Shown here piece by piece: positions 7,563 through 33,704 of a stretch of DNA of 33,704 nt. Under the pieces are notes generated by a model. It was given only the letters and a program-made list of their open reading frames with translations. It was not told the origin of the DNA and did no database searches. How positions within the stretch are numbered: position 1 is the first letter of the stretch; every line of letters starts with the position of its first letter. Source of the stretch: a virus (taxonomy: Duplodnaviria > Caudoviricetes); the IMG/VR virus record IMGVR_UViG_3300010273_000169, positions 1 through 33,704 of that record, one strand, 5' to 3'. Made by a program: the position numbers and the translations under genes.

Positions 7563-8044
7563 TACCGGATGCTCCTCTCCACGATTTGATGAATACGCTT
7601 GATGTAGCGGTCCTTGCGTTCCTCGAATGGTCTCTCCAGGTACTTCGCTTCGCCGCCGGCAACCATGTTGATTGTCTGGCCGGCGTTCTTTCCGGACATG
7701 ATCTTGCGTCCATCAGTTCGGTCATGCCGGAGTGAAAGGTCTTCGTGCTGTCTGAGGGCGTAGGGGAGAGAGTAGCCCACGGTAGCGGTTGCTTTCGTGG
7801 TCGAAGAAGGTGTGGCCCCCGTTGACTTCTTGTTGGCGAAGATACCTACGCCGTTCAAGTCCGCGTGGCAGTTGTTCCGGAGGTCACCCGACTCAATAGG
7901 CGCGCGCTTCGCGCTCTCCGCAGAGAGGTCTAGCGCGCATTCTCGTACGGCCTTCACCGTCTCCTGGGGATTTCTCAGTAGAGCGCGCTTGATTTGCCGG
8001 TTCAGCGCCTTGTCGTCGATTTGGATAGCCGTCCTCTTGGCCAC
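7562..8044 (-). CDS. HK97 gp10-like neck protein
   Basis: APIESGDLRN, VGYSLPYALRQHE and AKYLERPF motifs. Confidence 0.85.
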   Translation of the reverse strand: MAKRTAIQIDDKALNRQIKRALLRNPQETVKAVRECALDLSAESAKRAPIESGDLRNNCHADLNGVGIFANKKSTGATPSSTTKATATVGYSLPYALRQHEDLSLRHDRTDGRKIMSGKNAGQTINMVAGGEAKYLERPFEERKDRYIKRIHQIVERSIR

Positions 8045-10742: not shown

Positions 10743-12175
10743 CTCACCTCCTTGATGTAGAGAGTAGTCATCCTAGTCCCGACGTCATCGGTAATCCATC
10801 CGACGACGACGTTAGCAGGATTGCCCTTCTTACCGTATAGCACCATTTTCTGTTCCCACCGCGTGCCGTGTTGATCAGTCTTTACATGCGATACTGGATA
10901 CAGAGGCGCTCGTTTCAAGGCCTCGGCTTGCAGTTCCTGCCAGTTGTCCTTATCGTATCCAAGACGACTACTCAAAGCAACACCCTTAGCCCAGCCGTCA
11001 GCGTTTTCAGGATTAAACAGGTAACGAGTGAACTTTGCTTCAGCGGCTATGGCCTTATCCGCATTAGGCAACGCTTTCTCTGGGTGCTGCGCCAGATCAG
11101 TCCTGCGCCTGTAGTCAAGCTGCATGAGCGCCCATTTCTCGCCGCCGGCTTTCTTTATCTTGCGGAAGCCGTGGAATCTCTTGGGGGCATCCGGGCCCAA
11201 CCTGGCTTTGTACCGCTCATACTGGTAGAGGTCTTCGCGCATTCGCCGGTTCTGGGCCTGCTGCTTGTTGTACAGGTCGACCTCACGCTTAGCGCGACTA
11301 TCCTTGAAAGGCCTGTTGCTGCGCTCAATAGCTTGCTGCATCTCCTCCGGCGTTTGCATGCTCTCAACGAACGGTACGAGTACATGCCTGCAGTTCGGAT
11401 GGATGTTGTGATACCCGCTGCTGAACGCCCTGGAGAGCGGCGGAAACCGCTTGTCGTTGCCGCTGATGCTATACACCCGTCCCTGGTACTGGGCGCATAC
11501 CTCGCAGGTAGGGTAGTGCGTGCTTATCTCCACCAGGTCGTAACCGTTGGCAGTCAGCTGGTTCTCCCGCGCCAGGTTACCGGCTTCTCGCGTCGTGGAC
11601 CGGGCGCACAGCATCGCGTAGACGTCAAGAGGAACTTGAAACGCCCGGGCTCCACTGCTGTACTGGACGGTCATGAAGCCCTCGTTCTTTAGCTTCTCGA
11701 TCATGAGGTTCTTCATCTGCACTACCGTAGAGCCACTGGCGATCTTTTCACCGGAGGATGCCAGGCCTACCGCACGCAGAGCTTCATCCCTTGAGCTATC
11801 CACGTACCGCAGGATCTGTCTGCCCACCGAGGCCAGGCCCTGTCGAATCTGATACTGCATCTCACGGGCCACTGTATGGACAGCCTCAGCGTGCAGGTCA
11901 GCGAATAGGGAGGGGTGCTTCATGAGCAGGTTGTTCTTCTTGAAATAGTCGTATGTCTCCCGAAGCCCCTTCTCATATTCCGCCGGTATGGCCGTGTCAA
12001 TAAACTCATCCGCAGCCTTAGCCAGCGCCTCCAGTTCACGGTTGAGGCACTGGAGGACGCTGTTGGCGTAGACTTTCGTGCCAACGCCTCTGAAGTTGAC
12101 GATGGTATTAAGGAGCCGGTTGCGGGCCGCTAGATACAGTTTCGCCAAGTTGGCTAGTTCCTGCTGCGTAGCCAT
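10739..12175 (-). CDS. Minor head protein (Phage_min_cap2/MuF-type) with C-terminal DUF6883-like putative toxin domain
   Basis: After portal; CEVCAQYQGRVYS and HPNCRH motifs. An extra ~110 aa (10739-11071), LPNADKA..KFTRYLFNPEN..G..K..LGY..GTRW..GWI..RMTTLYI, matches the DUF6883 pattern from memory. Confidence 0.85.
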   Translation of the reverse strand: MATQQELANLAKLYLAARNRLLNTIVNFRGVGTKVYANSVLQCLNRELEALAKAADEFIDTAIPAEYEKGLRETYDYFKKNNLLMKHPSLFADLHAEAVHTVAREMQYQIRQGLASVGRQILRYVDSSRDEALRAVGLASSGEKIASGSTVVQMKNLMIEKLKNEGFMTVQYSSGARAFQVPLDVYAMLCARSTTREAGNLARENQLTANGYDLVEISTHYPTCEVCAQYQGRVYSISGNDKRFPPLSRAFSSGYHNIHPNCRHVLVPFVESMQTPEEMQQAIERSNRPFKDSRAKREVDLYNKQQAQNRRMREDLYQYERYKARLGPDAPKRFHGFRKIKKAGGEKWALMQLDYRRRTDLAQHPEKALPNADKAIAAEAKFTRYLFNPENADGWAKGVALSSRLGYDKDNWQELQAEALKRAPLYPVSHVKTDQHGTRWEQKMVLYGKKGNPANVVVGWITDDVGTRMTTLYIKEVR

Positions 12176-13572
12176 TATTCAAGGACCTCTGCATCCTCGG
12201 CCTCAGGCTCTTTGTCGCCGTTCACGTCTATGACCCCCAGCGGAAACGGAGTAGACGTGGCCTGTTCCTCCCGCAACTGCTCCATCTCTTCTTCAACTTC
12301 CTTGTCGGTCAAACCACGCTGTTTAAGAGCGCTGTACTGCGACATGATGGGTTTACCGCCCGTGGCAGTGGTGAGCATGTTGACCTGTTCCACTGGGTCA
12401 TCAGGTAGGCCGTCATGCCACGTGATGGTGAGCGTGTCGTAATCCAAGGTGATCCCGTTCACTTGGGCCAACAAAGACACGATGGTCTTTACCGTGCCGG
12501 CGTTCATGCCGGCAATTCGGGCCGCTTTGACCCGAGGGCTGACCATCTTCAGTTTCAGCGCGGTACCGCTCTGAGCCGAACCTCCCCCGCCGCCTTCGAT
12601 GAAGGCCTGGCCCATTTCTGTGAGGATATAAAGCTGGTTAAGGAGCAGCTCAATCTCCTTCCAGTTGTCACCAAGGTTACCGTCCCACGTGACGTACGAG
12701 ATGTCAGGATCGTCTTTCGTCTCGCGCTTGAAGTAGTTGCCGAGGTTTACATACCAAAGGCCGCTGCGCTCATCGTAGGAGAGGGCTGAGGCCGGTCCGC
12801 TCATCGATGGGTCGGAGTGTTTATCAAGAATAGCGTCAGCACGATGCAAACGCCACATGATCTTCGCCACGATGGAATTGATGATCTCATAGTCGTCCAG
12901 ACCGTAGATGCTGCCGCTGTGCGTGACGTTCGTCAGCACCTGGACTGCGAAGTCCTGCAGGCCCGTCTGATTGGTCTTGGTCTCCTTGAGAGCGCCGATT
13001 TCCTGCCGCTTCTCATCGTATGCGTATGTCCGCTGCTCGATCTGACCAATACTGTGGATCTCGACGTACAGTTCAGTCATAGCGCCTTGAGCGTCCGGTG
13101 TTATGGGGTACGCGATCACGTGTTGGGTGACGGTTTTCAAGTCGTTAGGAGCGACAATCGGGAACCAGTACATAGGCGAAGCTATCGTGAGGCCTTTCCC
13201 CACAATCTTGAGCACGGCGTCACCATACCGGGATACGTCGATAATCGCTTCGTAAAGCTTCGCCGCGAACCTTTGGCGGTTAAGAATCTTCAGCAGTTCA
13301 TCCGTCTGGCCTCCGGTCTCAAACGTTGGAGGTTCCGCGCACACGAAATCGGCGATCTTCTTGCTGAGCAGCTGGTGGTAGTTGAAGACTGTGTTGACGT
13401 CCCATGTTGACAACCGGTAACGACGAGACAACTCCGCGAACGCGGTCTGCCATGCTTCGGTGTGCTTCGTCAGGAACAGCTTCTCATGCAGTTTGTAGCG
13501 TTCAATGCGCCCCTTCTCGGAGGCGGGAGGGTAGGGAGAACCAGACTGTAGCCAATTCAGATTCGTGAGCAT
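12175..13572 (-). CDS. Portal protein (SPP1/A118-like)
   Basis: Start placed at ATG 13572 (AGGAGG 9 nt upstream); NYHQLLSKKIADF, SGTALK and ITWHDGLPDD motifs. Confidence 0.9.
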   Translation of the reverse strand: MLTNLNWLQSGSPYPPASEKGRIERYKLHEKLFLTKHTEAWQTAFAELSRRYRLSTWDVNTVFNYHQLLSKKIADFVCAEPPTFETGGQTDELLKILNRQRFAAKLYEAIIDVSRYGDAVLKIVGKGLTIASPMYWFPIVAPNDLKTVTQHVIAYPITPDAQGAMTELYVEIHSIGQIEQRTYAYDEKRQEIGALKETKTNQTGLQDFAVQVLTNVTHSGSIYGLDDYEIINSIVAKIMWRLHRADAILDKHSDPSMSGPASALSYDERSGLWYVNLGNYFKRETKDDPDISYVTWDGNLGDNWKEIELLLNQLYILTEMGQAFIEGGGGGSAQSGTALKLKMVSPRVKAARIAGMNAGTVKTIVSLLAQVNGITLDYDTLTITWHDGLPDDPVEQVNMLTTATGGKPIMSQYSALKQRGLTDKEVEEEMEQLREEQATSTPFPLGVIDVNGDKEPEAEDAEVLE

Positions 13573-13587
13573 CGTCGTAACCCTCCT

Positions 13588-13650
13588 CGCCATAACGAAG
13601 CGCCGCCATCGCGTCATCTATGTTTCAATCCACGCCTCAAAAGAGGCGAC
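13588..13650 (-). CRISPR. Solitary type I-C-like CRISPR repeat (13650-13622) plus one 34-nt spacer (13621-13588) homologous to terL
   Basis: Repeat GTCGCCTCTTTTGAGGCGTGGATTGAAAC has a 6-bp hairpin and the 11-nt TGGATTGAAAC tail. The spacer ATAGATGACGCGATGGCGGCGCTTCGTTATGGCG is 27/34 identical to terL 13745-13712. No second repeat and no cas operon in the window. Confidence 0.8.
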
Positions 13651-14939
13651 TATCGGATCTGCACCTGAACAAACTCGCCACCACCACCGCGACGTGGCCG
13701 CCAGCGCTCAACGCCGTAACGGAGCGCGGCCATGGCATCATCGAAATACTCTACCGGCTCATCGATGTAGAGCCCTGTCTGCGGGTCCTTCTTCCATTTC
13801 CACTGCTGGATCTCTTTGATGGTGTTCACGCAGGAAGGATGGATGTGGATCTTCCTGCCTTTCAGGAAGTCAATCTGGGCCTTGACACTACCAGGTTCCT
13901 TCTTCACCGGCCTGGCGCGATAACCGGCTTTGCGCCACGTCGCTATGCGGTCAGGCTCAGCGGAGTCACACCACATCTCTTCTTGCTTGCTGACGCCGGC
14001 CTTGTTGGCCAGCTCGATGATCTCGTTGGTGTCTTTCTCGAAGACGTATATCTCTGACCGGACATAAACCTCGCCGTCTTTCCAACCGAGAAGAAGGATA
14101 GCGTTGGCGTGGTTAAAACCGAAGTCCTGACCGATGGCAACTGCGTCGAAGTAGTCCCTGTCCTGACGGAATTCGTGTATCTCGAAGTTGGTCAAGATCT
14201 GGCCGCCCAGTTCGCCCCACTCACCGAGGCCGTATACGCGGTAACCATCCGGATCTTCGATGCGGCGCCGCTCCATACGGGCGTAGTAGCCCTCGTCGAT
14301 GAAGCGGTTGTCCCGGTAAGTCGAATGGTGGGTGAAGACCTCTGGGTCTTGCCTGTCAAAGTACCGCGCTTTTATCCAGTGAGTGGCGCTCACCGGGTTG
14401 AAAGTCATCGTGATCTGGTAGTACAGATTCGGATTGATGCCGGCCAAGTCCCCACGGAGGCGGTCGTCAAGGATATCCACGTCCTCCTGCAAGAGTTCTG
14501 TGGCTTCCTCAATCCATATCCAGCAGAGCTTGCCCTTGCGAAAGGTGATGGACTTGACCTTTTCACGCTGACCTTGGTCCTTCATACCGCGGAAGATGAT
14601 CCGGTTGCCCGTTGCCCGGCACTCCATCATGAGAGGGTTCAGGTTGATCTTCCAAAACCTCTCGGAGTACTCACCGAAAAGCCTGTATATGGCAGCCTGG
14701 AGCTCAGCAAAGGTGCTGTCGCGATTCGTTTCCTCGATCTTACGGACCACAAGTAAGTTGGCGCCAGTGAAACGCGGGTCCGAGAGTTTCTTGATGTAGT
14801 CCTGGGCGATGTTAACTGACTTGCCGGAACCGGCGGACCCTTTCAGAATGCGATATCGCGTCCTGCATGCGTTGACTGGCCGGAATATTGGGTTCCACCG
14901 GGCAACAGCCTTGTGGACGACAGCGCTATTCAGGTTCAT
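13650..14939 (-). CDS. terL: Terminase large subunit (PBSX family)
   Basis: Walker A GSAGSGKS, WIEEATE, TFNP..HWIK, GQDFGF, DSAEPDRI, DDAMAALRY; start taken at ATG 14939. Confidence 0.96.
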   Translation of the reverse strand: MNLNSAVVHKAVARWNPIFRPVNACRTRYRILKGSAGSGKSVNIAQDYIKKLSDPRFTGANLLVVRKIEETNRDSTFAELQAAIYRLFGEYSERFWKINLNPLMMECRATGNRIIFRGMKDQGQREKVKSITFRKGKLCWIWIEEATELLQEDVDILDDRLRGDLAGINPNLYYQITMTFNPVSATHWIKARYFDRQDPEVFTHHSTYRDNRFIDEGYYARMERRRIEDPDGYRVYGLGEWGELGGQILTNFEIHEFRQDRDYFDAVAIGQDFGFNHANAILLLGWKDGEVYVRSEIYVFEKDTNEIIELANKAGVSKQEEMWCDSAEPDRIATWRKAGYRARPVKKEPGSVKAQIDFLKGRKIHIHPSCVNTIKEIQQWKWKKDPQTGLYIDEPVEYFDDAMAALRYGVERWRPRRGGGGEFVQVQIR

Positions 14940-15363
14940 CGCCGTAGTCATCGGCGATCACCACTGTGATAGGCAGATTGACGTCCAGTTTGTCCGTGAA
15001 CATGCCGAGACGTTTCCCAATGAGCTCGGCGGCCTTATTCCGATCCCGGACGCTAACCTTTTTCCGAACAATACGAGCGCCAGAGCAGCCGTCGCCCTCA
15101 CCTTCGATAACGACGACATCTTCAGATACTTCCTCTCGCATAACTGACGTCAGATACTGGAGGACTTCCACTGCTCCGGCTATCCGCTTTTCCTCTAACT
15201 CCTTGAGCCGAGCGTCAATCCTGTCTCTAAGTTTTGCTACGTTCTGCGCGCCCTGAACATGTGGCTGTTTGTACCCAGCGCGTCTTGCCGCTTCCGTCTG
15301 ATTCCCCGTTTCGACGTAGTAGTCTATGAAACGCTTTTGCTTTTCGGTCAGTCTCTTGTTCAT
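14926..15363 (-). CDS. terS: Terminase small subunit
   Basis: LTEKQKRFIDYY..GNQTEAARRAGY; KAAELIGKRLGMFTDK. Confidence 0.95.
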   Translation of the reverse strand: MNKRLTEKQKRFIDYYVETGNQTEAARRAGYKQPHVQGAQNVAKLRDRIDARLKELEEKRIAGAVEVLQYLTSVMREEVSEDVVVIEGEGDGCSGARIVRKKVSVRDRNKAAELIGKRLGMFTDKLDVNLPITVVIADDYGDEPE

Positions 15364-15770
15364 GTCTTACCAAACCTATTCAGTATGAGTTGCTCCTCGT
15401 TGACATGCATCTTGGCATGACAGCCGTTGCACAGCGTCATGCCGTTATTGACGTCGATTCGGCCTCCGGGGTAATCAGACCAAGGGATAACGTGATGGGC
15501 CTCTACATTCTCTGTTGAACCGCAGCAAACACACTTGTGACCGTCGCGCGCCATAACATCATTCTTCCACTTCATGACCCTCTCATCATGCCTACTAAGC
15601 GGCGCGATGGCGCTATCAACCACAATCTCGCGCCAATTCGGAAGGTAGTGCCGGAGGATCAAGATGGCGGCCTTCTTACGCACGTAATCAGTAACAGATT
15701 CACTTATCAACACAGCCAGGGCGTTTACCACCAGCGAAAACTCTCTACGAGTCAACCCTCTGGCCACCAT
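15360..15770 (-). CDS. HNH endonuclease
   Basis: RDGHKCVCCG..EAHHV..NGMTLCNGCH; ATG 15770 with GGAGGTG. Confidence 0.9.
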   Translation of the reverse strand: MVARGLTRREFSLVVNALAVLISESVTDYVRKKAAILILRHYLPNWREIVVDSAIAPLSRHDERVMKWKNDVMARDGHKCVCCGSTENVEAHHVIPWSDYPGGRIDVNNGMTLCNGCHAKMHVNEEQLILNRFGKT

Positions 15771-16089
15771 TGTCACCTCCGGCCTCTTCATTAGCCGCAA
15801 CAACTCTAAAGCCGTTGTCGGTGATAACCATCATTAACCCCGCTGCAAGACAAGCGACTTGTCGCTCTTTCAGATTCAGGTCAAACAACTCACTTAAGCC
15901 ATGCAGTACTTCATGAAGAAGAGTGGTCACAACTCGTTCGGTCGTGAACTTGGTGGTGATCTGAATCACATCTTGACCAAACGAAATATGCCCGTACAAC
16001 TCTTGACTGTCTTCGACAATACCTTCCGGTACTGACTCAACTCGATACGTATACGGTCCTATCTTGATCTCCTTCGGCAAAATCGCCAT
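15745..16089 (-). CDS. Small zincin-type (HExxH) metallopeptidase-like phage protein
   Basis: TLLHEVLHG motif plus downstream E (LKERQV); first gene of the late operon. Confidence 0.75.
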   Translation of the reverse strand: MAILPKEIKIGPYTYRVESVPEGIVEDSQELYGHISFGQDVIQITTKFTTERVVTTLLHEVLHGLSELFDLNLKERQVACLAAGLMMVITDNGFRVVAANEEAGGDNGGQRVDS

Positions 16090-16145
16090 TATTGCACCGA
16101 CTTTCCTCCGGAAACTTTTATACTATTGACGGAGGTGAGAACAAA

Positions 16146-16379
16146 ATGGCAAACAAAAAGATTCACATTGTACCCCGAGACGATCAATGGGCTGTAAGGC
16201 GTGAAGGCGCTGAAAGACCATCCAGAGTCGTAAGCACGCAAAAAGAAGCAATAGAAATCGGGCGCCAACAAGCCCAACGAGCTAAGACAGAATTAGTAAT
16301 CCACGGCCACGACGGTAAGATTCGAGATAGCGACAGCTATGGCCGTGACCCGTGCCCGCCCAAAGACCGAAAGCACTAA
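16146..16379 (+). CDS. DUF2188-family protein (antisense moron)
   Basis: HIVPRDDQWAVRREGAERPS..TQKEAI..ELVIHGHDGKIRDSDSYGRDPCPPKD; GGAGGTG RBS before ATG 16146. Confidence 0.88.
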   Translation: MANKKIHIVPRDDQWAVRREGAERPSRVVSTQKEAIEIGRQQAQRAKTELVIHGHDGKIRDSDSYGRDPCPPKDRKH

Positions 16380-16393
16380 GCCTGAAACACTGA

Positions 16394-16417
16394 AGCCGCC
16401 CGACCCCGTGGGCGGCT
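16394..16417. terminator. GC-rich hairpin after the DUF2188 gene (weak or bidirectional terminator)
   Basis: AGCCGCCC-N8-GGGCGGCT; only partial U tracts on either strand. Confidence 0.5.
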
Positions 16418-16435
16418 CCACTTTCTGCTGTTAAC

Positions 16436-16480
16436 ACGATACCATGTTTCATAACGCCAAAAGTGCAAATCTAGTGCAAA
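16436..16480 (-). promoter_or_regulatory. Putative late promoter with activator-binding direct repeat
   Basis: TTTGCACT twice (16480-16473, 16469-16462; 11-bp period) right after the RinA-like stop, then an extended -10-like TGGTATCGT. Confidence 0.65.
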
Positions 16481-16482
16481 CC

Positions 16483-16890
16483 TCACAGCAGGCCCATTTC
16501 CCTTGCGATAGCCAAGAGTATCTGTCCTCGCCAGTAAAAATACGTCCGTCTAGAGACGTGCAACCGTCGGTATATACCTAAATCGGTGAGTTCTCGCTGC
16601 CAGTAACGCATTTCAACCAGACGCTTCTTCTCCGGTTCCAACCGTTCATAGACCCTCGTGATAGCCTCGTAATGCTCTACCAGGCGTTCCAAGCGTTTGG
16701 AGGTTAAGAGCCGCATAACCCGGGAGAGAGTGGGGTCCCCGACGCCTTCAGCGCCCACAGCGGCCAGCCGCTCAGGAGTGGCGTCGATAATGTCCGCCCT
16801 TAACCTCTCAATCTCTTGCTTGCGCCACGGATAGGCGTACAGCTCGGCTTCTACGTACCGGAAGACGTCGCGTTCGTAACGCGTAGTCAC
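16483..16890 (-). CDS. RinA/ArpU-family late transcriptional activator
   Basis: FRYVEAELYAYP, GDPT, KKRLVEMRYW and LHVSRRTYFYWR motifs; GTG start overlapping the SNF2 stop. Confidence 0.85.
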   Translation of the reverse strand: MTTRYERDVFRYVEAELYAYPWRKQEIERLRADIIDATPERLAAVGAEGVGDPTLSRVMRLLTSKRLERLVEHYEAITRVYERLEPEKKRLVEMRYWQRELTDLGIYRRLHVSRRTYFYWRGQILLAIAREMGLL

Positions 16891-18547: not shown

Positions 18548-18567
18548 GAGGCGCACCTCCCTGTGCC

Positions 18568-18823
18568 GTCTACATTGTCTACAAAACTACATACGCGCGT
18601 ATATGTACGTGCGATCAGGCGCGTTAGGCGCGCGTGGGTGTGTGTATTCTCCCTATTACCTCTCTTTTTTACTTTAATAGAGAAAGAATGTAGACAATGT
18701 AGACAGGAAGGTATTTGACCTGCTACGGCATGTGTTTTTGCGTCTACATTCAATGTAGACGAAGTAGACAATGTAGACAGTCCAGTGGGGGAGAATGTAG
18801 ACAATGTAGACGAGAATGTAGAC
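18568..18823. repeat. Iteron array (AATGTAGAC), probable replication origin
   Basis: Exact 9-mer at 18687, 18696, 18752, 18770, 18794, 18803 and 18815; inverted copies at 18568 and 18742; degenerate copies at 18577 and 18761; AT-rich tract ~18660-18686. Confidence 0.85.
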
Positions 18824-21235: not shown

Positions 21236-21727
21236 TCACTCCTGCGTGGGCGCTTCGATGTCTCTATACGCCTTTATGAACACAATCCAGTGCTTGCGCC
21301 TGCCGTACCTCTCGGCCACGATGGGCTTCTCTGGCGTCAAGGCGAGCACTTCGCCTAGCGGTATGTCGCTGTCACTCCACTTGAACACCAGCGTCCCTCC
21401 GGGCTTCAGCACCCGGAAACACTCCTCGAAACCCCGCCGCAGGTCGTCCCGCCACGAGTCCGAGAGTTTGCCGTAAGCCTGCGTTAGCCAGGCGTTGGGG
21501 CCGCTGCGCAGAAGATGCGGCGGGTCAAAGATCACGAGTGAGAAGGCTCTGTCCGCGAACGGCAGGGCGCGGAAGTCCATGAGCATATCGGGCGCGATAG
21601 ACAGTACCCGGCCGTCGCACTGCTTGATGTCCTCCTGCCTGATGTCGCCGAACAGCACGCGCTCATCGCGCTTGTCGAGGTAGAACTTCTTAGCCCCACA
21701 GCAGGGGTCAAGAACGGGATGGCTCAA
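21236..21727 (-). CDS. SAM-dependent DNA amino-methyltransferase (N6-A/N4-C type)
   Basis: VLDPCCG (motif I), IFDPPH (motif IV), ECFRVLKPGGTLVFKW; TTG start after GAGAGGAGG. Confidence 0.85.
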   Translation of the reverse strand: MSHPVLDPCCGAKKFYLDKRDERVLFGDIRQEDIKQCDGRVLSIAPDMLMDFRALPFADRAFSLVIFDPPHLLRSGPNAWLTQAYGKLSDSWRDDLRRGFEECFRVLKPGGTLVFKWSDSDIPLGEVLALTPEKPIVAERYGRRKHWIVFIKAYRDIEAPTQE

Positions 21728-21741
21728 GATACAGCCTCCTC

Positions 21742-22035
21742 TCATCCGAACATGACCTTCAGCGCGACCATGACACCCGCCAGCATCAGGGAAAGGGTGT
21801 TGGTTACAAAGAAGGCATAGGCAGATTTCCGCGATATGAGGTAAATGGCATAGACCTCCATAAAGACTACGCCCACAAAGATGGAGACCAGGTAGACAAG
21901 GTTCAGGTCCCTGGTGAGGCCCGTCCGGACGATCTGCGCTATCTGCGGGATGTAGCCTGCGGAGAGTATTATTCCGCCCAGCAGTTGCAGGCCGCTGAAG
22001 AACCAGGCTTTCCTTTTCTCATCGGTCTTGCTCAT
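21742..22035 (-). CDS. PQ-loop / SemiSWEET-like small membrane transporter
   Basis: 97 aa with three hydrophobic helices; GYIPQIAQIVRT..TRDLN motif; late Asn (VTN). Confidence 0.8.
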   Translation of the reverse strand: MSKTDEKRKAWFFSGLQLLGGIILSAGYIPQIAQIVRTGLTRDLNLVYLVSIFVGVVFMEVYAIYLISRKSAYAFFVTNTLSLMLAGVMVALKVMFG

Positions 22036-22107
22036 TCTGCAAGCCTCCTCTCATGCGATGGAGCGGGCGGGGCATTATGCTCAGCCGGAGCGCCCCGCCC
22101 ACAAGTG

Positions 22108-22455
22108 TCAGGCCCTGAACGGGCTAGATAGGTCAAACAAGGTGTCCAGGAGGTCGTCGATGACCTTCTGCACGGTCTCAGCCGAGAGCCGGCTGTTCTT
22201 GGCGGCCACCATGTTGATGACTAGGGTGTACAGGACGGTGTTGCTCTTGATGACGTCCCTCAGGCGCTGGGCGCTGGCCCTGGAGCCAACCATGGTAGCC
22301 AAGAGGTCATACTTGGTGCCGAGCGCCGAGATCATCTTCAGGCCTTCATCTATCTGGTTGAGGCCGGTGACAAGGGCCTCGCCTTTGGTCATGACGGGCT
22401 CTTCGGGGGCCGCTGGGGTCTCGGTACCAATCACGGTTTCTTCGATATCCAACAT
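22108..22455 (-). CDS. Hypothetical helical protein
   Basis: ATG 22455 with AAGAGGAG; co-oriented in the operon. Confidence 0.7.
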   Translation of the reverse strand: MLDIEETVIGTETPAAPEEPVMTKGEALVTGLNQIDEGLKMISALGTKYDLLATMVGSRASAQRLRDVIKSNTVLYTLVINMVAAKNSRLSAETVQKVIDDLLDTLFDLSSPFRA

Positions 22456-22477
22456 TCGAGTCACTCCTCTTAATGGG

Positions 22478-23500
22478 TTATGAAGCAAACGCACCAGAAG
22501 GGAGATCCCACTTCTCAGTGATTAGGTCTTTGGCGTGTATCTCACCGAGTAAGGCAATGCGTACCCATTTCTCGGCGTCGAGGTTCCGGGGGAGACGGGA
22601 CTCCCCGAGGTCTGCTAGTTGGGTCAAGGTCAGTTTGTTGTCGATGGTATGACCGAGGTCTTTCTCCATCTCCACGAGCTGACGGAACCGTTCAGGGGAT
22701 ATCTCCCTCATCGTTGCCCACTGGTCAGCCGTGCTGAAGATACAACCGAAGCATGACGTCCTGTTGAAGCCCAGCCAGTAGGCAGGATGAGGGAGGATAC
22801 GAAACTGCTCAAGTATGTCCCAAATCGCCCTTTCGGGCCATTCGATGACCGTACGCCACCAGGTCACTTCTCTGCGCCGGCTATTGCAGGGATGCTCTTC
22901 TACGTTCAAGTAGCGGGCACGATTCGCCGATTCTTCTCTGCGCTCCCCGGTTATCACGAGAAACCTACCCTCTTGATAGTCGGGGTGATTGTTGAGTACG
23001 CGCCGCATGACGTCGATTTTGAGGTAGGCAGTGCACCATCTGGTCCTCAAGTCAACGGCCTTTGCCGGGAACTTCTTGCGAGTTGCTGCTTTGCCGTTTC
23101 TCGTGGGCAGCGTAATGATCTCACTGCCGCGCTCATACTGGACGTCATTGGTTCGACGGTTCTCTCTCATCAATTCACCGTAGAAGCCTTGCTTGCGCCA
23201 CTGGAATTCAGTCTGAATCCCCATAGCCTCGCCGAACGCTCGAACATAAGGTTCTGTCACAGGCCAGTCAGCGAACTGAATCTCTCCAGGGGCGCCATCT
23301 ACAGATTGATGCCAGAGGACTATTCTATCCTTGGGAATACCGATTTTGAGCAGGTACAGAACGCACGCCGTGCTGTCCTTACCGCCACTGGTGGAGACAA
23401 TGATCCTATCGTATGTAGTCAGGTCAGCTAGTTTAGCGGCCTTTGGGTCTTCAGCCACTTCCAGCTCTTCATATTCCACTGGGCAAGCAAGGGCAGTCAC
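22478..23500 (-). CDS. PAPS-reductase-family (PP-loop) protein
   Basis: VSTSGGKDS PP-loop, RWCTAYLK, TGERREESANRA, HPAYWLGFNRTSCFGCIF. Confidence 0.88.
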   Translation of the reverse strand: MTALACPVEYEELEVAEDPKAAKLADLTTYDRIIVSTSGGKDSTACVLYLLKIGIPKDRIVLWHQSVDGAPGEIQFADWPVTEPYVRAFGEAMGIQTEFQWRKQGFYGELMRENRRTNDVQYERGSEIITLPTRNGKAATRKKFPAKAVDLRTRWCTAYLKIDVMRRVLNNHPDYQEGRFLVITGERREESANRARYLNVEEHPCNSRRREVTWWRTVIEWPERAIWDILEQFRILPHPAYWLGFNRTSCFGCIFSTADQWATMREISPERFRQLVEMEKDLGHTIDNKLTLTQLADLGESRLPRNLDAEKWVRIALLGEIHAKDLITEKWDLPSGAFAS

Positions 23501-30814: not shown

Positions 30815-30912
30815 TCACTAACTGTGTTCATAATAGCGACCGATATAGGTCTTGTCAACACTAAATGTGAGTATTTTGTATTGAGATCTTGTCTGTTATC
30901 ACAGGAGGTGAT
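30815..30912. promoter_or_regulatory. Genetic switch: lytic promoter plus three WCAC-N5-GTGW operators
   Basis: Minus-strand TTGACA (30858-30853)-N17-TATTAT (30835-30830). Operators TCACtaactGTGT 30815-27, ACACtaaatGTGA 30858-70 and ATCACaggagGTGAT 30898-912. Confidence 0.75.
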
Positions 30913-30915
30913 TCA

Positions 30916-31533
30916 ATGAGCGCAGGTGGTGATTGGTTGTTCAGCCTCGTTCTGAAACAGCTAAGAGAAGAAAAAGGGTTGTCCCAGTACAAATTAGCTG
31001 AACTTCTTGGCGTGGCTCAGTCCACAGTAGGTATGTGGGAGAGCGGTAAGCGAGAACCGGATTTCGCCATGGTCAAGAGGCTCGCGGACTTCTTTTCAGT
31101 TTCTACGGACTACCTCCTAGACCGCCCCGCCAAATCAAAAGGTGTCCCGATCCCTGTTCTTGGTAGAGTCCCGGCCGGCATTCCCATTGAGGCTGTGCAA
31201 GAAATCCTCGATTACGAAGAGATCACTCCGGAAATGGCCTCCCAGGGTGAGTTTTTCGCTCTTCAGATTAGAGGAGACAGTATGGCTCCTCGCATCCGCG
31301 AAGGTGACGTTGTCATTGTTCGTAAGCAGAATTGGGTTGATAACGGCGACGTTGCGGTTGTGCTGGTAAACGGGGAAGATGCCACAGTGAAGCGGTTCTA
31401 CCAGTCCGAACAAGGAGTCAAATTGGTATCGGCGAATCCTGCGTATGAGCCTTTGTTCTACACTGCCTCCGAAGTAAAGAGTCTTCCTGTGGTCATTATC
31501 GGCAAAGTCGTGGAGTTGAGAGGGAAGTTGTGA
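30916..31533 (+). CDS. cI: CI/LexA-like repressor (HTH plus S24 autopeptidase)
   Basis: XRE HTH; cleavage site VPAG; catalytic GDSM Ser and ATVKR Lys; start ATG 30916 or TTG 30937. Confidence 0.95.
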   Translation: MSAGGDWLFSLVLKQLREEKGLSQYKLAELLGVAQSTVGMWESGKREPDFAMVKRLADFFSVSTDYLLDRPAKSKGVPIPVLGRVPAGIPIEAVQEILDYEEITPEMASQGEFFALQIRGDSMAPRIREGDVVIVRKQNWVDNGDVAVVLVNGEDATVKRFYQSEQGVKLVSANPAYEPLFYTASEVKSLPVVIIGKVVELRGKL

Positions 31534-31557
31534 TGCGCTCAGCAGGGAGGTAATGAA

Positions 31558-32148
31558 ATGTACTGCCCCAATTGTGGAAAGGAAGTCACCGGCAAATTTT
31601 GTTCGGAATGCGGCACGCCCGTTGGTTCATCGCCCCAAGTCACTGCACAGTCACCTAGCATAACGGAAGATACTTCTATCGTCATTAATGACCAGCGCAT
31701 AGATCTACAGGCTCTTGTAAACATGCACGGGAAAAACCGAATAGCTGCTGTCAAAGAGGTTCGCGCTCTCACGGGATTGGGGCTGGGCGAAGCCAAAGAT
31801 GTTGTCGATAGCGCTTACGCGATGTTCGCCCCGGCCGAGAAGTCATCCGGTGGTTTTTGGGCAAAAGTCAAAGAGAACGCCGAGGCCAAGCGGGTAGCGG
31901 AACAGGCTGAAGCTTTGCGGGAGGCCCAGCGCCTTCAACAACTCGAACGAGACGGTATTCCTTACTGTCCTAAGTGCCACTCCACGAGTCTATCAGCGCA
32001 TAAGAAAGGTTTCGGATTCGGAAAGGCCGTAGTAGGTGTATTAGTGGCGGGCCCCATCGGTCTTGCCGCCGGGGGCTTGGGCTCTGGTAAGGTTAAAGTA
32101 ACCTGCCTTAAGTGCGGACATCAGTTCATGGCCGGCAAAGGTAAATGA
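31558..32148 (+). CDS. Zn-ribbon + ribosomal L7/L12-CTD-like + membrane-hairpin Zn-finger protein
   Basis: MYCPNCG..FCSECG; RIAAVKEVRALTGLGLGEAKDVVD; CPKCHS..GFGFGKAVVGVLVAGPIGLAAGGLG..CLKCG. Confidence 0.8.
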   Translation: MYCPNCGKEVTGKFCSECGTPVGSSPQVTAQSPSITEDTSIVINDQRIDLQALVNMHGKNRIAAVKEVRALTGLGLGEAKDVVDSAYAMFAPAEKSSGGFWAKVKENAEAKRVAEQAEALREAQRLQQLERDGIPYCPKCHSTSLSAHKKGFGFGKAVVGVLVAGPIGLAAGGLGSGKVKVTCLKCGHQFMAGKGK

Positions 32149-33704
32149 AAGCCGTTATCTACGCCCGATACTCACCTGGTCCTGATCAACGCGAGGAATC
32201 CATTGAAGGCCAGATTCGGGAATGCACGGAGTATGCGGAACATCACGGCATAACCGTTGTAGGCCATTACGCTGACCGCGGTATCAGTGGCCGCACCGAC
32301 AACCGGGCAGAGTTTCAGCGGATGCTTAAGGACTGTGAGAAGCGCCTCTTTGACGCGATCATTGTATGGAAGATCAATCGGTTTGGCCGTAACCGTGAAG
32401 AGATCGCGATCAACAAGGTCCGATGCAGAAAACACGGTGTAAAGGTCCTCTATGCCAAGGAGCACATCCCTGACGGTCCCGAGGGGATTATCCTGGAGTC
32501 AGTACTTGAGGGCATGGCTGAGTACTACTCTGCGAACCTGGCACAAGATGTTAAGCGCGGGATGAAGGAAAATGCTCTGAAGTGCATGTCCGCAGGTGGG
32601 ACAACGCTGTTCGGCTATCGGATCGGCGCCGACCGTAAGTACGAAATCCATCCGACCAATGGTCCTATCATGCAATGGGCCTTTGAGCAGTATGACAGCG
32701 GCAGAAGCTTAACCGATATCGTGAATGAGATGAACGCGAGAGGCGTAAAGTCCGCTACTGGCAAGCGGTTCACAACGAACAGCCTTCGGACCGCGTTCCG
32801 AAATCGGAAGTACACTGGCGTCTACATCTTTGATGATGTGGAGATCGAGGGCGGCATGCCGGCCCTCGTCGAAAAGGACCGCTTTGAGAGGGTGCAGAGG
32901 AGGTTGGATATGAACAGACGCGCCCCGGCCCGTAACAAGGCCAAGGTAGACTATCTCCTGACTGGTAAAGTGTTTTGCGGTCACTGCAATGCGCCTATGG
33001 TAGGGGAGAGCGGAACCGGACGCGGCGGCAAGACCTACAACTACTATAAGTGCGGCAAGGCCAAAAAAGACCATACGTGCAATAAGAGATCCGAACGCAA
33101 GGAGTGGCTAGAGGACCTGGTTGTCCGGGAGACCGTGGAGAAGGTTCTCGTCGATGACGTCATTGACATGATCGCGGAGAACGTTGAGAGGATTCAGGAA
33201 GCGGAGCGCAAGGACAGCGACCTCCAGTACCACGAAGAACGGCTGGCCGGCACCGAGAAGGCCATACGTAACCTGCTGAAGGCCATTGAGCAAGGCATCT
33301 TCACGCCCTCCACCAAGGACCGGTTGGATGAGCTGGAGCAAGAGAAAGCGGAGATAGAGAATGCTATTCTTCAGGCCAAGTCAACTGCTAGAGTGACGGT
33401 CACCAAAGATCAAGTCAAGTATTGGCTCAAGAGGTTTCAGGCGGGCGACATCAACGATCCTGAATACCGTCAACGTCTCGTGGAAACATTCGTGAACGCG
33501 GTTTTCGTGTATGATGAGGACTCTGACCAGGGCAATGGTGACAAGAAGATTGTTATCACCTATAATTACACAGGTGGGCAAACCACGGCTATTGGTTCGG
33601 ATTTGGCACAGGAATACCCACCACGTCTTATTAGTTTCCTCAGCGTTAAATGCGAGGGTGTCGGAACTGGCAGACGAGCTGGACTTAGGATCCAGTGCCC
33701 ATAA
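32145..33704 (+). CDS. Large serine recombinase (integrase)
   Basis: YARYS catalytic Ser, ADRGISG, RFGRN, recombinase domain, CGHC..YYKC..C zinc ribbon, coiled coil. Confidence 0.96.
   Translation: MKAVIYARYSPGPDQREESIEGQIRECTEYAEHHGITVVGHYADRGISGRTDNRAEFQRMLKDCEKRLFDAIIVWKINRFGRNREEIAINKVRCRKHGVKVLYAKEHIPDGPEGIILESVLEGMAEYYSANLAQDVKRGMKENALKCMSAGGTTLFGYRIGADRKYEIHPTNGPIMQWAFEQYDSGRSLTDIVNEMNARGVKSATGKRFTTNSLRTAFRNRKYTGVYIFDDVEIEGGMPALVEKDRFERVQRRLDMNRRAPARNKAKVDYLLTGKVFCGHCNAPMVGESGTGRGGKTYNYYKCGKAKKDHTCNKRSERKEWLEDLVVRETVEKVLVDDVIDMIAENVERIQEAERKDSDLQYHEERLAGTEKAIRNLLKAIEQGIFTPSTKDRLDELEQEKAEIENAILQAKSTARVTVTKDQVKYWLKRFQAGDINDPEYRQRLVETFVNAVFVYDEDSDQGNGDKKIVITYNYTGGQTTAIGSDLAQEYPPRLISFLSVKCEGVGTGRRAGLRIQCP
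33594..33623 (+). other. Candidate prophage attachment junction within the integrase 3' end
   Basis: GGTTCGGATTTGGCACAGGAATACCCACCA has a tRNA-3'-end-like GGTTCG...CCACCA layout; the protein loses integrase-like character after SDLAQEYPP. Confidence 0.45.

Follow-up and report, generated by a model that had tools for sequence, protein, structure and literature searches.

The stretch analysed here (the window, 33.7 kb) is the whole virus record IMGVR_UViG_3300010273_000169 and encodes a siphovirus-type head/tail module, a DNA polymerase, a repressor and a serine integrase. The same sequence lies inside a 69-kb metagenome contig (L089), with 0 differences over the common stretch; this suggests that the phage is integrated there as a prophage. 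Read along the minus strand, the packaging region runs from terS to terL, a 29-nt hairpin repeat, a 34-nt terL-like guide, an AGGAGG and the portal start at position 13572. The features concerned are:

14926..15363, minus strand: terminase small subunit, upstream within the same gene run (profile match)
13650..14951, minus strand: terL, encoding a terminase large subunit of PBSX type (433 aa); the self site lies towards the 3′ end of the gene (PHROGs match to terminase large subunit, E = 1e-85; tblastn match to annotated PBSX terL)
13746..13748, minus strand: TAT (Tyr codon), the PAM position of the self site, Phe TTC/TTT in most relatives (sequence and homologue comparison)
13712..13745, minus strand: self site inside terL, encoding F-D-D-A-M-A-A-L-R-Y-G, 27/34 against the guide (alignment)
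13622..13650, minus strand: solitary type I-C-like repeat, 29 nt, its first base being the G of the terL stop codon (fold z = −3.2; ends as in 31–33-nt array repeats)
13588..13621, minus strand: guide (spacer), 34 nt, a variant of the terL site that begins right after the Phe/PAM codon, with no second repeat downstream (empty-site contig; modal array spacer length)
13582..13587, minus strand: portal RBS AGGAGG, immediately 3′ of the guide (sequence)
12175..13572, minus strand: portal protein, 465 aa (PHROGs portal; the 465-aa form is the form on record)
30889..33704, plus strand: repressor and serine integrase, a temperate phage context (profile match)

The repeat stands alone, the next best match to it in the window reaching 18/29, and the phage carries neither an array nor cas genes (none among the 33 + 14 window ORFs scanned). 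An Rfam search gave no match, and no acr gene was recognised next to the unit with libraries that do not amount to an acr search. Between positions 13300 and 16600, no sigma-70-like promoter was found against 2.1 expected; because this region holds no promoter-like site, it is doubtful that the guide protects a lysogen. An in-frame ATG inside the guide could lengthen the portal protein by 15 residues (window 13617–13572), and guide positions 2–4 form a stop codon just ahead of it. Elsewhere in the window, the primase-helicase gene ends in short repeats, both direct and inverted (GTAGACAAT-like; 18556–18820), that perhaps mark a replication origin, and the replication module (21236–23500) includes DNA methyltransferase-like and PAPS-reductase-like genes.

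The limits of the insert are given by a 167-nt contig from run X9 (depth 4.2), which aligns to the end of terL with 27 differences in 147 and then passes straight into the portal RBS. It lacks exactly positions 13588–13650, i.e. 29 + 34 = 63 nt, and has the 17 letters 13571–13587 in common with the window. Because this empty-site contig bounds the insert, the guide is 34 nt long and there is no target duplication; around the unit, not one spare base separates the terL stop codon from the portal RBS. Among carriers, the unit is identical in X6 record 5 and shows 3 differences in 220 in X7 record 11, and both X9 record 16 (41 differences in 567) and X13 record 1 (108 in 1397) run across it without gap or joint. 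The unit stretch thus keeps its length in strains diverged by ~8%, from several studies, and the region is kept in strains whose portal differs at 44/465 residues. In the X13 strain, the 156 codons flanking the unit show 0 amino-acid changes. The apparent conversion tract around the unit failed its control on the terL side, as 46 of 111 unit-less terL pairs are likewise free of C-terminal differences. Pattern scans for homologous units matched only the same phage (a second match, L088, proved unrelated), and neither portal-anchored searches nor GenBank phages yielded any.

The repeat is predicted to fold (z = −3.2) with a 2-nt 5′ overhang, a 6-bp stem, a 4-nt loop and an 11-nt tail; all 11 bases of this handle (13632–13622) are intact and the repeat ends in GAAAC. 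According to the accessible text of PMC8524198, Cas5c cleaves at the stem base and recognises the UGG that follows it, not the loop. Compared with the substrate described there, the 2-nt 5′ overhang and the 11-nt 3′ handle starting with UGG are present, whereas the stem and loop measure 6 bp and 4 nt here as against 7 and 5. As Cas5c reads the stem base and UGG rather than the loop, the shortened repeat would be a plausible Cas5c substrate. A genome scan for the ends of the repeat, using a pattern that could not match the 29-nt form itself, returned at least 121 stretches, 80 of them with DNA. Among the matches listed, the 56 stretches with at least three copies have repeats of 31–33 nt, and array spacer length peaks at 34 nt (677 of 1657 spacers). 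When 31 of 106 ORFs, hand-picked from 10 array loci, were checked, cas5c, cas8c and cas7c scored above curated cut-offs in seven loci and cas1c in one, two loci giving none. The type I-C assignment of the initial annotation therefore holds, in that the repeat family adjoins cas5c/cas8c/cas7c in 7/10 loci sampled. Searches that included BLAST of array spacers returned neither the host nor its Cas system.

Realignment of the guide (13621–13588) with the terL site (13745–13712) reproduced exactly the 27/34 match and the features noted at first sight, namely mismatches at positions 1, 3, 9, 12, 18, 24 and 30 and a TAT 5′ of the self site. The match is beyond chance, the best of 1000 shuffled guides reaching 24/34 across the window. 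A non-PAM codon and seed mismatches (positions 1 and 3) do set the self site apart, as had been claimed. The self site also has TTC at its positions 1–3, and a shifted register based on it had been entertained as a route to self-binding or priming; moving by +3, however, gives only 13/34, with seed mismatches, and looping out three bases would leave just 1 of 5 mismatches at 6n, i.e. at every sixth position. Escape through the PAM as an adaptation to the guide is not supported: TAT or TAC also occupies this position in L066, L093, L095 and L244, all unit-less, the first three of which have the same portal type as the window phage. Given these relatives, the Tyr codon may predate the insert, and with it the escape. 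Guide positions 9–34 (window 13588–13613) can form a hairpin of −11.3 kcal/mol in which the guide-specific bases 9, 18 and 30 take part and the seed stays open; as a selected feature it was rejected, since 37/504 array spacers and 4/29 relative sites fold as well.

Candidate targets were sought among relatives at two levels. For the protein comparison, 102 terL homologues (the X13 carrier included) were parsed of 120 listed from 4900 found. Phe occupies the PAM codon in 85/102 of these matches, and guide positions 1–3 correspond to Met in 71/102, Phe in 29/102 and Ile in 0/102. At the DNA level, 41 distinct non-self sites came from 131 loci, a spurious match outside terL being one of the 41; the PAM position reads TTC in 18 and TTT in 11 (29/41 together). 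In the accessible text of PMC5602111, these are the two best I-C PAMs of a plasmid screen and TAT is not among the seven named, but the I-C PAM is described as permissive, with 11 further PAMs, unnamed in that text, giving >50% protection. Together with an insert of exactly 29 + 34 nt, these counts bear out the I-C register proposed initially. Because relatives read Phe-Met, position 3 of the guide is mismatched in almost every one (40/41 non-self sites). The best TTC/TTT-bearing sites reach 29/34, and the best site overall, 30/34 in L251, has GTC at the PAM position. No perfect guide target was found among the non-self sites compared, and an IMG/VR scan for sequence coding for Ile-Asp-Asp-Ala-Met-Ala-Ala-Leu-Arg-Tyr found only the unit itself. 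Of the proposal that a competitor encoding Phe-Ile-Asp-Asp would be fully targeted, one part stands: PAM-bearing relatives are likely targets, 22/29 relative sites being nearer to the guide than to self. The Phe-Ile-Asp-Asp motif itself was absent (Ile 0/102 among the matches listed). Run X6 contains a carrier together with a TTC-ATG relative, whose mismatches, read by eye over the 23 positions visible, fall at 3, 12 and 18. For type I-E, the accessible part of PMC12871591 names positions 1, 2 and 4 as the most mismatch-sensitive and reports that stable single mismatches promoted priming.

How common such an arrangement is was judged from two surveys. At least 119 viral loci carry 27–30-nt I-C repeats, with flanks available for 80; among the matches listed, 60 distinct repeat-plus-34-mers include one with a self-like site (≥26/34), the window unit, and 59/60 shortened solitary repeats have no cognate guide. 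Solitary I-C repeats of 27–30 nt with an intact handle (L253–L371) are common in phage contigs, and one 27-nt repeat family makes up about half of the at least 119 loci. Two solitary I-C repeats (L500, L503), each followed by AAAT, occur in G007, the record of L066; because of them, this portal group can be taken to meet I-C hosts, and neither has a cognate site within the G007 record. A second copy of the own site (≥23/34) was found at 0/94 other loci.

The second survey, of 124 loci with 31–33-nt repeats and 272 guides, gave 14 scoring at least 23/33, of which only two, L395 and L449, are convincing and codon-aligned. Rejected were three duplicated array spacers, L440 and L403 (repeat or hairpin artefacts with weak matches), L424 and L425 (matched by 7 and 2 of 300 shuffles), L408 and L442 (spacers matching nearby DNA of their own contig, 26–27/33 and 32/33, with no codon-aligned site) and L434, the remnant of a local duplication that at first looked analogous. 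In L395 (745–960), an independent phage, a 48-aa gene and its stop codon are followed by a single 31-nt I-C repeat and a guide running into the next start codon. Its self site, 76 nt upstream, retains TTC and differs from the guide at 3, 6, 7, 9, 10 and 11; the guide is identical to the end of this gene in two relatives (P0125, P0126), which end in the guide's peptide and not the carrier's. L449 (6001–6170) is a mini-array, preceded by a promoter-like motif, in which two repeats match and a third is degenerate; its second spacer aligns with a 157-aa gene of the same phage (L449:1228–1701), 4.8 kb off, at 25/33 with TTC and positions 1–8 intact, a possible case of self-priming.

Three intergenic chromosomal 29-nt repeats (L129, L134 and L147, each at 8001–8028; 27/29 against the window repeat) have ~90 nt upstream in common and variable DNA starting with AT downstream, and possibly represent a small mobile element ending in an I-C repeat. 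At L140 (4364–4430), the 34 nt after a solitary repeat match a site 2.7 kb off at 28/34, within promoter-like DNA, a possible regulatory guide or duplication.

The initial annotation had read four of five internal mismatches at 6n as a sign that the guide is under selection. The flipping of every sixth base, with a seed of positions 1–5 and 7–8, is established mainly from type I-E (PMC11127173, accessible text). In this guide, every 6n position is also a third codon position, and mismatches to self occupy 4/5 of the 6n positions against 2/6 of the other third positions (Fisher p = 0.175); weighted by the codon usage of this phage, the chance of at least 4/5 is 0.30. Among unit-less relatives, 10/55 pairs with five third-position mismatches have at least four at 6n. 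The comparison that had been proposed, 6n versus other third-codon positions, applied to relative sites and to two analogous units, gave no enrichment: against 29 unbiased relative sites the mismatches number 76/145 at 6n and 63/116 at the other third positions, and in L395 and L449 taken together 4/10 at 6n and 6/12 elsewhere (6/15 and 8/18 if the dropped L434 is included). Loci from one pattern search were excluded from the relative tests because its pattern fixed non-6n positions. The base that most sites show at positions 18, 24 and 30 (22, 23 and 34 of 41) is also that of the guide, self having a minority C there. Selection against competitors would shape the mismatches between guide and competitor, not those between guide and self, which should gather at 6n only if Cascade bound the own site. 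The 6n mismatches are best taken as incidental third-codon differences, and the rhythm is no more than expected by chance.

The reading we favour, with a probability of about 52%, is that the phage carries, in this unit, a CRISPR guide with a single repeat that is directed at related phages and predicted to act through host I-C machinery. A host I-C Cas1-Cas2 would first have acquired the spacer from a related phage, and recombination with the host array would have brought it to the window phage. Host Cas5c would cleave the transcript of terminase and portal at the foot of the hairpin (13633/13632), releasing an 11-nt handle and guide with the portal message as 3′ tail, and host Cascade-Cas3 would attack, or prime against, co-infecting or resident relatives with TTC-ATG. 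Such activity would be timed to lytic growth or induction, and self would be spared through PAM and seed, possibly since before the insert arrived. In favour of a guide against kin are the empty site without exactly the 63 nt, the prevalence of Phe (85/102 matches listed) and of TTC/TTT (29/41) with 22/29 sites nearer the guide, the cas genes beside 7/10 sampled arrays, and a handle and stem base with the features that Cas5c recognises (PMC8524198, accessible text). It also draws on the unchanged unit beside a TTC-ATG relative in X6, the gap-free unit stretch in the ~8% diverged X9 and X13 records, the independent recurrence of the anatomy in L395 and the viral mini-arrays said to act likewise in the accessible text of PMC6858448. 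Against it stand the lack of a perfect target among the sites compared (40/41 mismatch position 3; best PAM-bearing sites 29/34), the missing second repeat that would set the 3′ end, a repeat of 29 nt instead of 31–33, and a promoter search without a hit in 13300–16600 (0 vs 2.1 expected), so that a lysogen may not make the guide. Further points against are the self-folding of the guide (−11.3 kcal/mol), the failure of the searches to name a host or its Cas system, the single 167-nt contig (depth 4.2) behind the empty site, and the 59/60 listed short solitary repeats without a cognate guide, which fit a decoy.

An RNA anti-CRISPR of this decoy kind, in which the repeat soaks up host Cas5c/Cas7 in lytic growth and the 34 nt are a passenger of its capture, is unlikely but comes first among the alternatives. 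A single shortened repeat within an operon recalls RacrIC1 on its bicistronic RNA (PMC10651486, accessible text), and the at least 119 viral loci with short I-C repeats, the two repeats of G007 without cognate sites and the mismatch of guide position 3 to nearly all targets point the same way. Against a decoy, the insert comprises exactly a repeat and a spacer of modal length in PAM register, and only 1/60 listed short-repeat units has a cognate guide of this kind; nor was an acr gene recognised beside the unit (libraries that are not an acr search), and late expression would be a poor moment for counter-defence.

More doubtful is homing, by which the unit would be a protein-free, intronless element: in a mixed infection, Cascade-Cas3 would cut PAM-bearing terL 61–124 nt from the insertion point, and repair with the carrier as template would copy the resistant end and the 63-nt unit. 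A target within a conserved motif, adjoined by a cassette that has no promoter of its own and sits in a pre-existing operon, recalls the T4 free-standing endonucleases (PMC2988022, accessible text). An empty allele exists, the unit region is kept where the portal differs at 44/465 residues, and in L395 the guide and downstream bases equal the relatives' native gene end while the carrier copy is recoded. Yet the conversion tract failed its control (46/111 unit-less pairs), the unit is rare, with 0/94 other loci holding a second copy of their site, capture by recombination explains the proximity without homing, and a search (a weak test) for proteins that read through the guide frame gave none. 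Cas3, moreover, degrades long stretches of DNA.

Ranking just below homing, and improbable, is an inert or decaying relic of phage-host array recombination, tolerated because self lacks a PAM. The shortened and unaccompanied repeat, the promoter and perfect target that the searches did not find, and the non-PAM Tyr of unit-less relatives are what a relic would show; the intact stem, stem base and 11-base handle, the constant length across diverged strains of several studies and the zero spare bases between stop codon and RBS are not. That Cascade binds the own terL site without cutting, as a regulator or primer, is very improbable, for although 4/5 internal mismatches lie at 6n, the I-C PAM is permissive (PMC5602111) and self-priming is discussed as a mini-array cost (PMC7099407; accessible text of both), the 6n pattern is not significant, TAT and mismatches 1, 3 and 9 oppose binding, the shifted register gives only 13/34 and the guide is nearer to relatives than to self.

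If the favoured guide against kin is active, a lone repeat with its spacer, embedded in an mRNA, is sufficient for a phage to borrow host I-C immunity against its relatives. With an empty site, natural targets and a resistant self, the unit is a well-bounded test case that bears on why viral guides adjoin their targets, a proximity called unexplained in the accessible text of PMC6858448, and on the priming cost of imperfect self-matches (PMC7099407, accessible text). The 6-nt mismatch rhythm contributes nothing to this significance. Were homing true, L395, with a guide identical to the gene end native to its relatives, would provide a second case, and a crRNA that carries the next gene's mRNA as 3′ tail would count as a new form of guide.

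The literature covered, with most subscription papers and supplements outside its scope, gave no one-repeat guide in a terminase operon and no CRISPR-guided homing by such a unit; supplementary tables of the mini-array papers may list such units. The nearest known systems are viral mini-arrays, which target neighbouring genes of relatives and have their own locus mutated (PMC6858448, PMC7099407, PMC11656645, accessible texts; these also cite the phage mini-arrays of Faure 2019). Like those of SPV1 and SPV2 (Medvedeva 2019, PMC6858448, accessible text), the unit has a host-type repeat, no cas genes and a mutated own locus, its spacer would be directed against a nearby gene of related viruses, and it is leaderless and probably captured by recombination. 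Unlike them, it has one repeat, of 29 nt, so that the spacer is not flanked by two; it is wedged into a packaging operon, with a stop codon on one side and the following RBS on the other, and the searches found neither a perfect target nor a promoter. Solitary repeats have been published as anti-CRISPRs (PMC10651486, accessible text): RacrIC1 and RacrIF1 likewise have a single repeat with intact handle on a polycistronic RNA of a temperate phage, whereas the window repeat is followed by a guide of spacer length that stands in PAM register to a phage gene, and has no known acr neighbour. With the T4 seg/mob free-standing homing endonucleases (PMC2988022, accessible text), the unit has in common an intergenic promoter-less cassette, a conserved target gene and a resistant carrier, but it encodes no protein and would borrow host Cascade-Cas3. 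Regulatory crRNA-like mini-arrays, some of them phage-borne, also combine a stand-alone repeat with a partly matched guide (bioRxiv 10.1101/2023.03.03.530964, accessible text); they target cas promoters with PAM and seed intact, while the window guide corresponds to a coding motif and the self site has neither. By these comparisons, the unit is a sharply bounded single-repeat guide that probably works like a mini-array yet falls outside the two-repeat definition.
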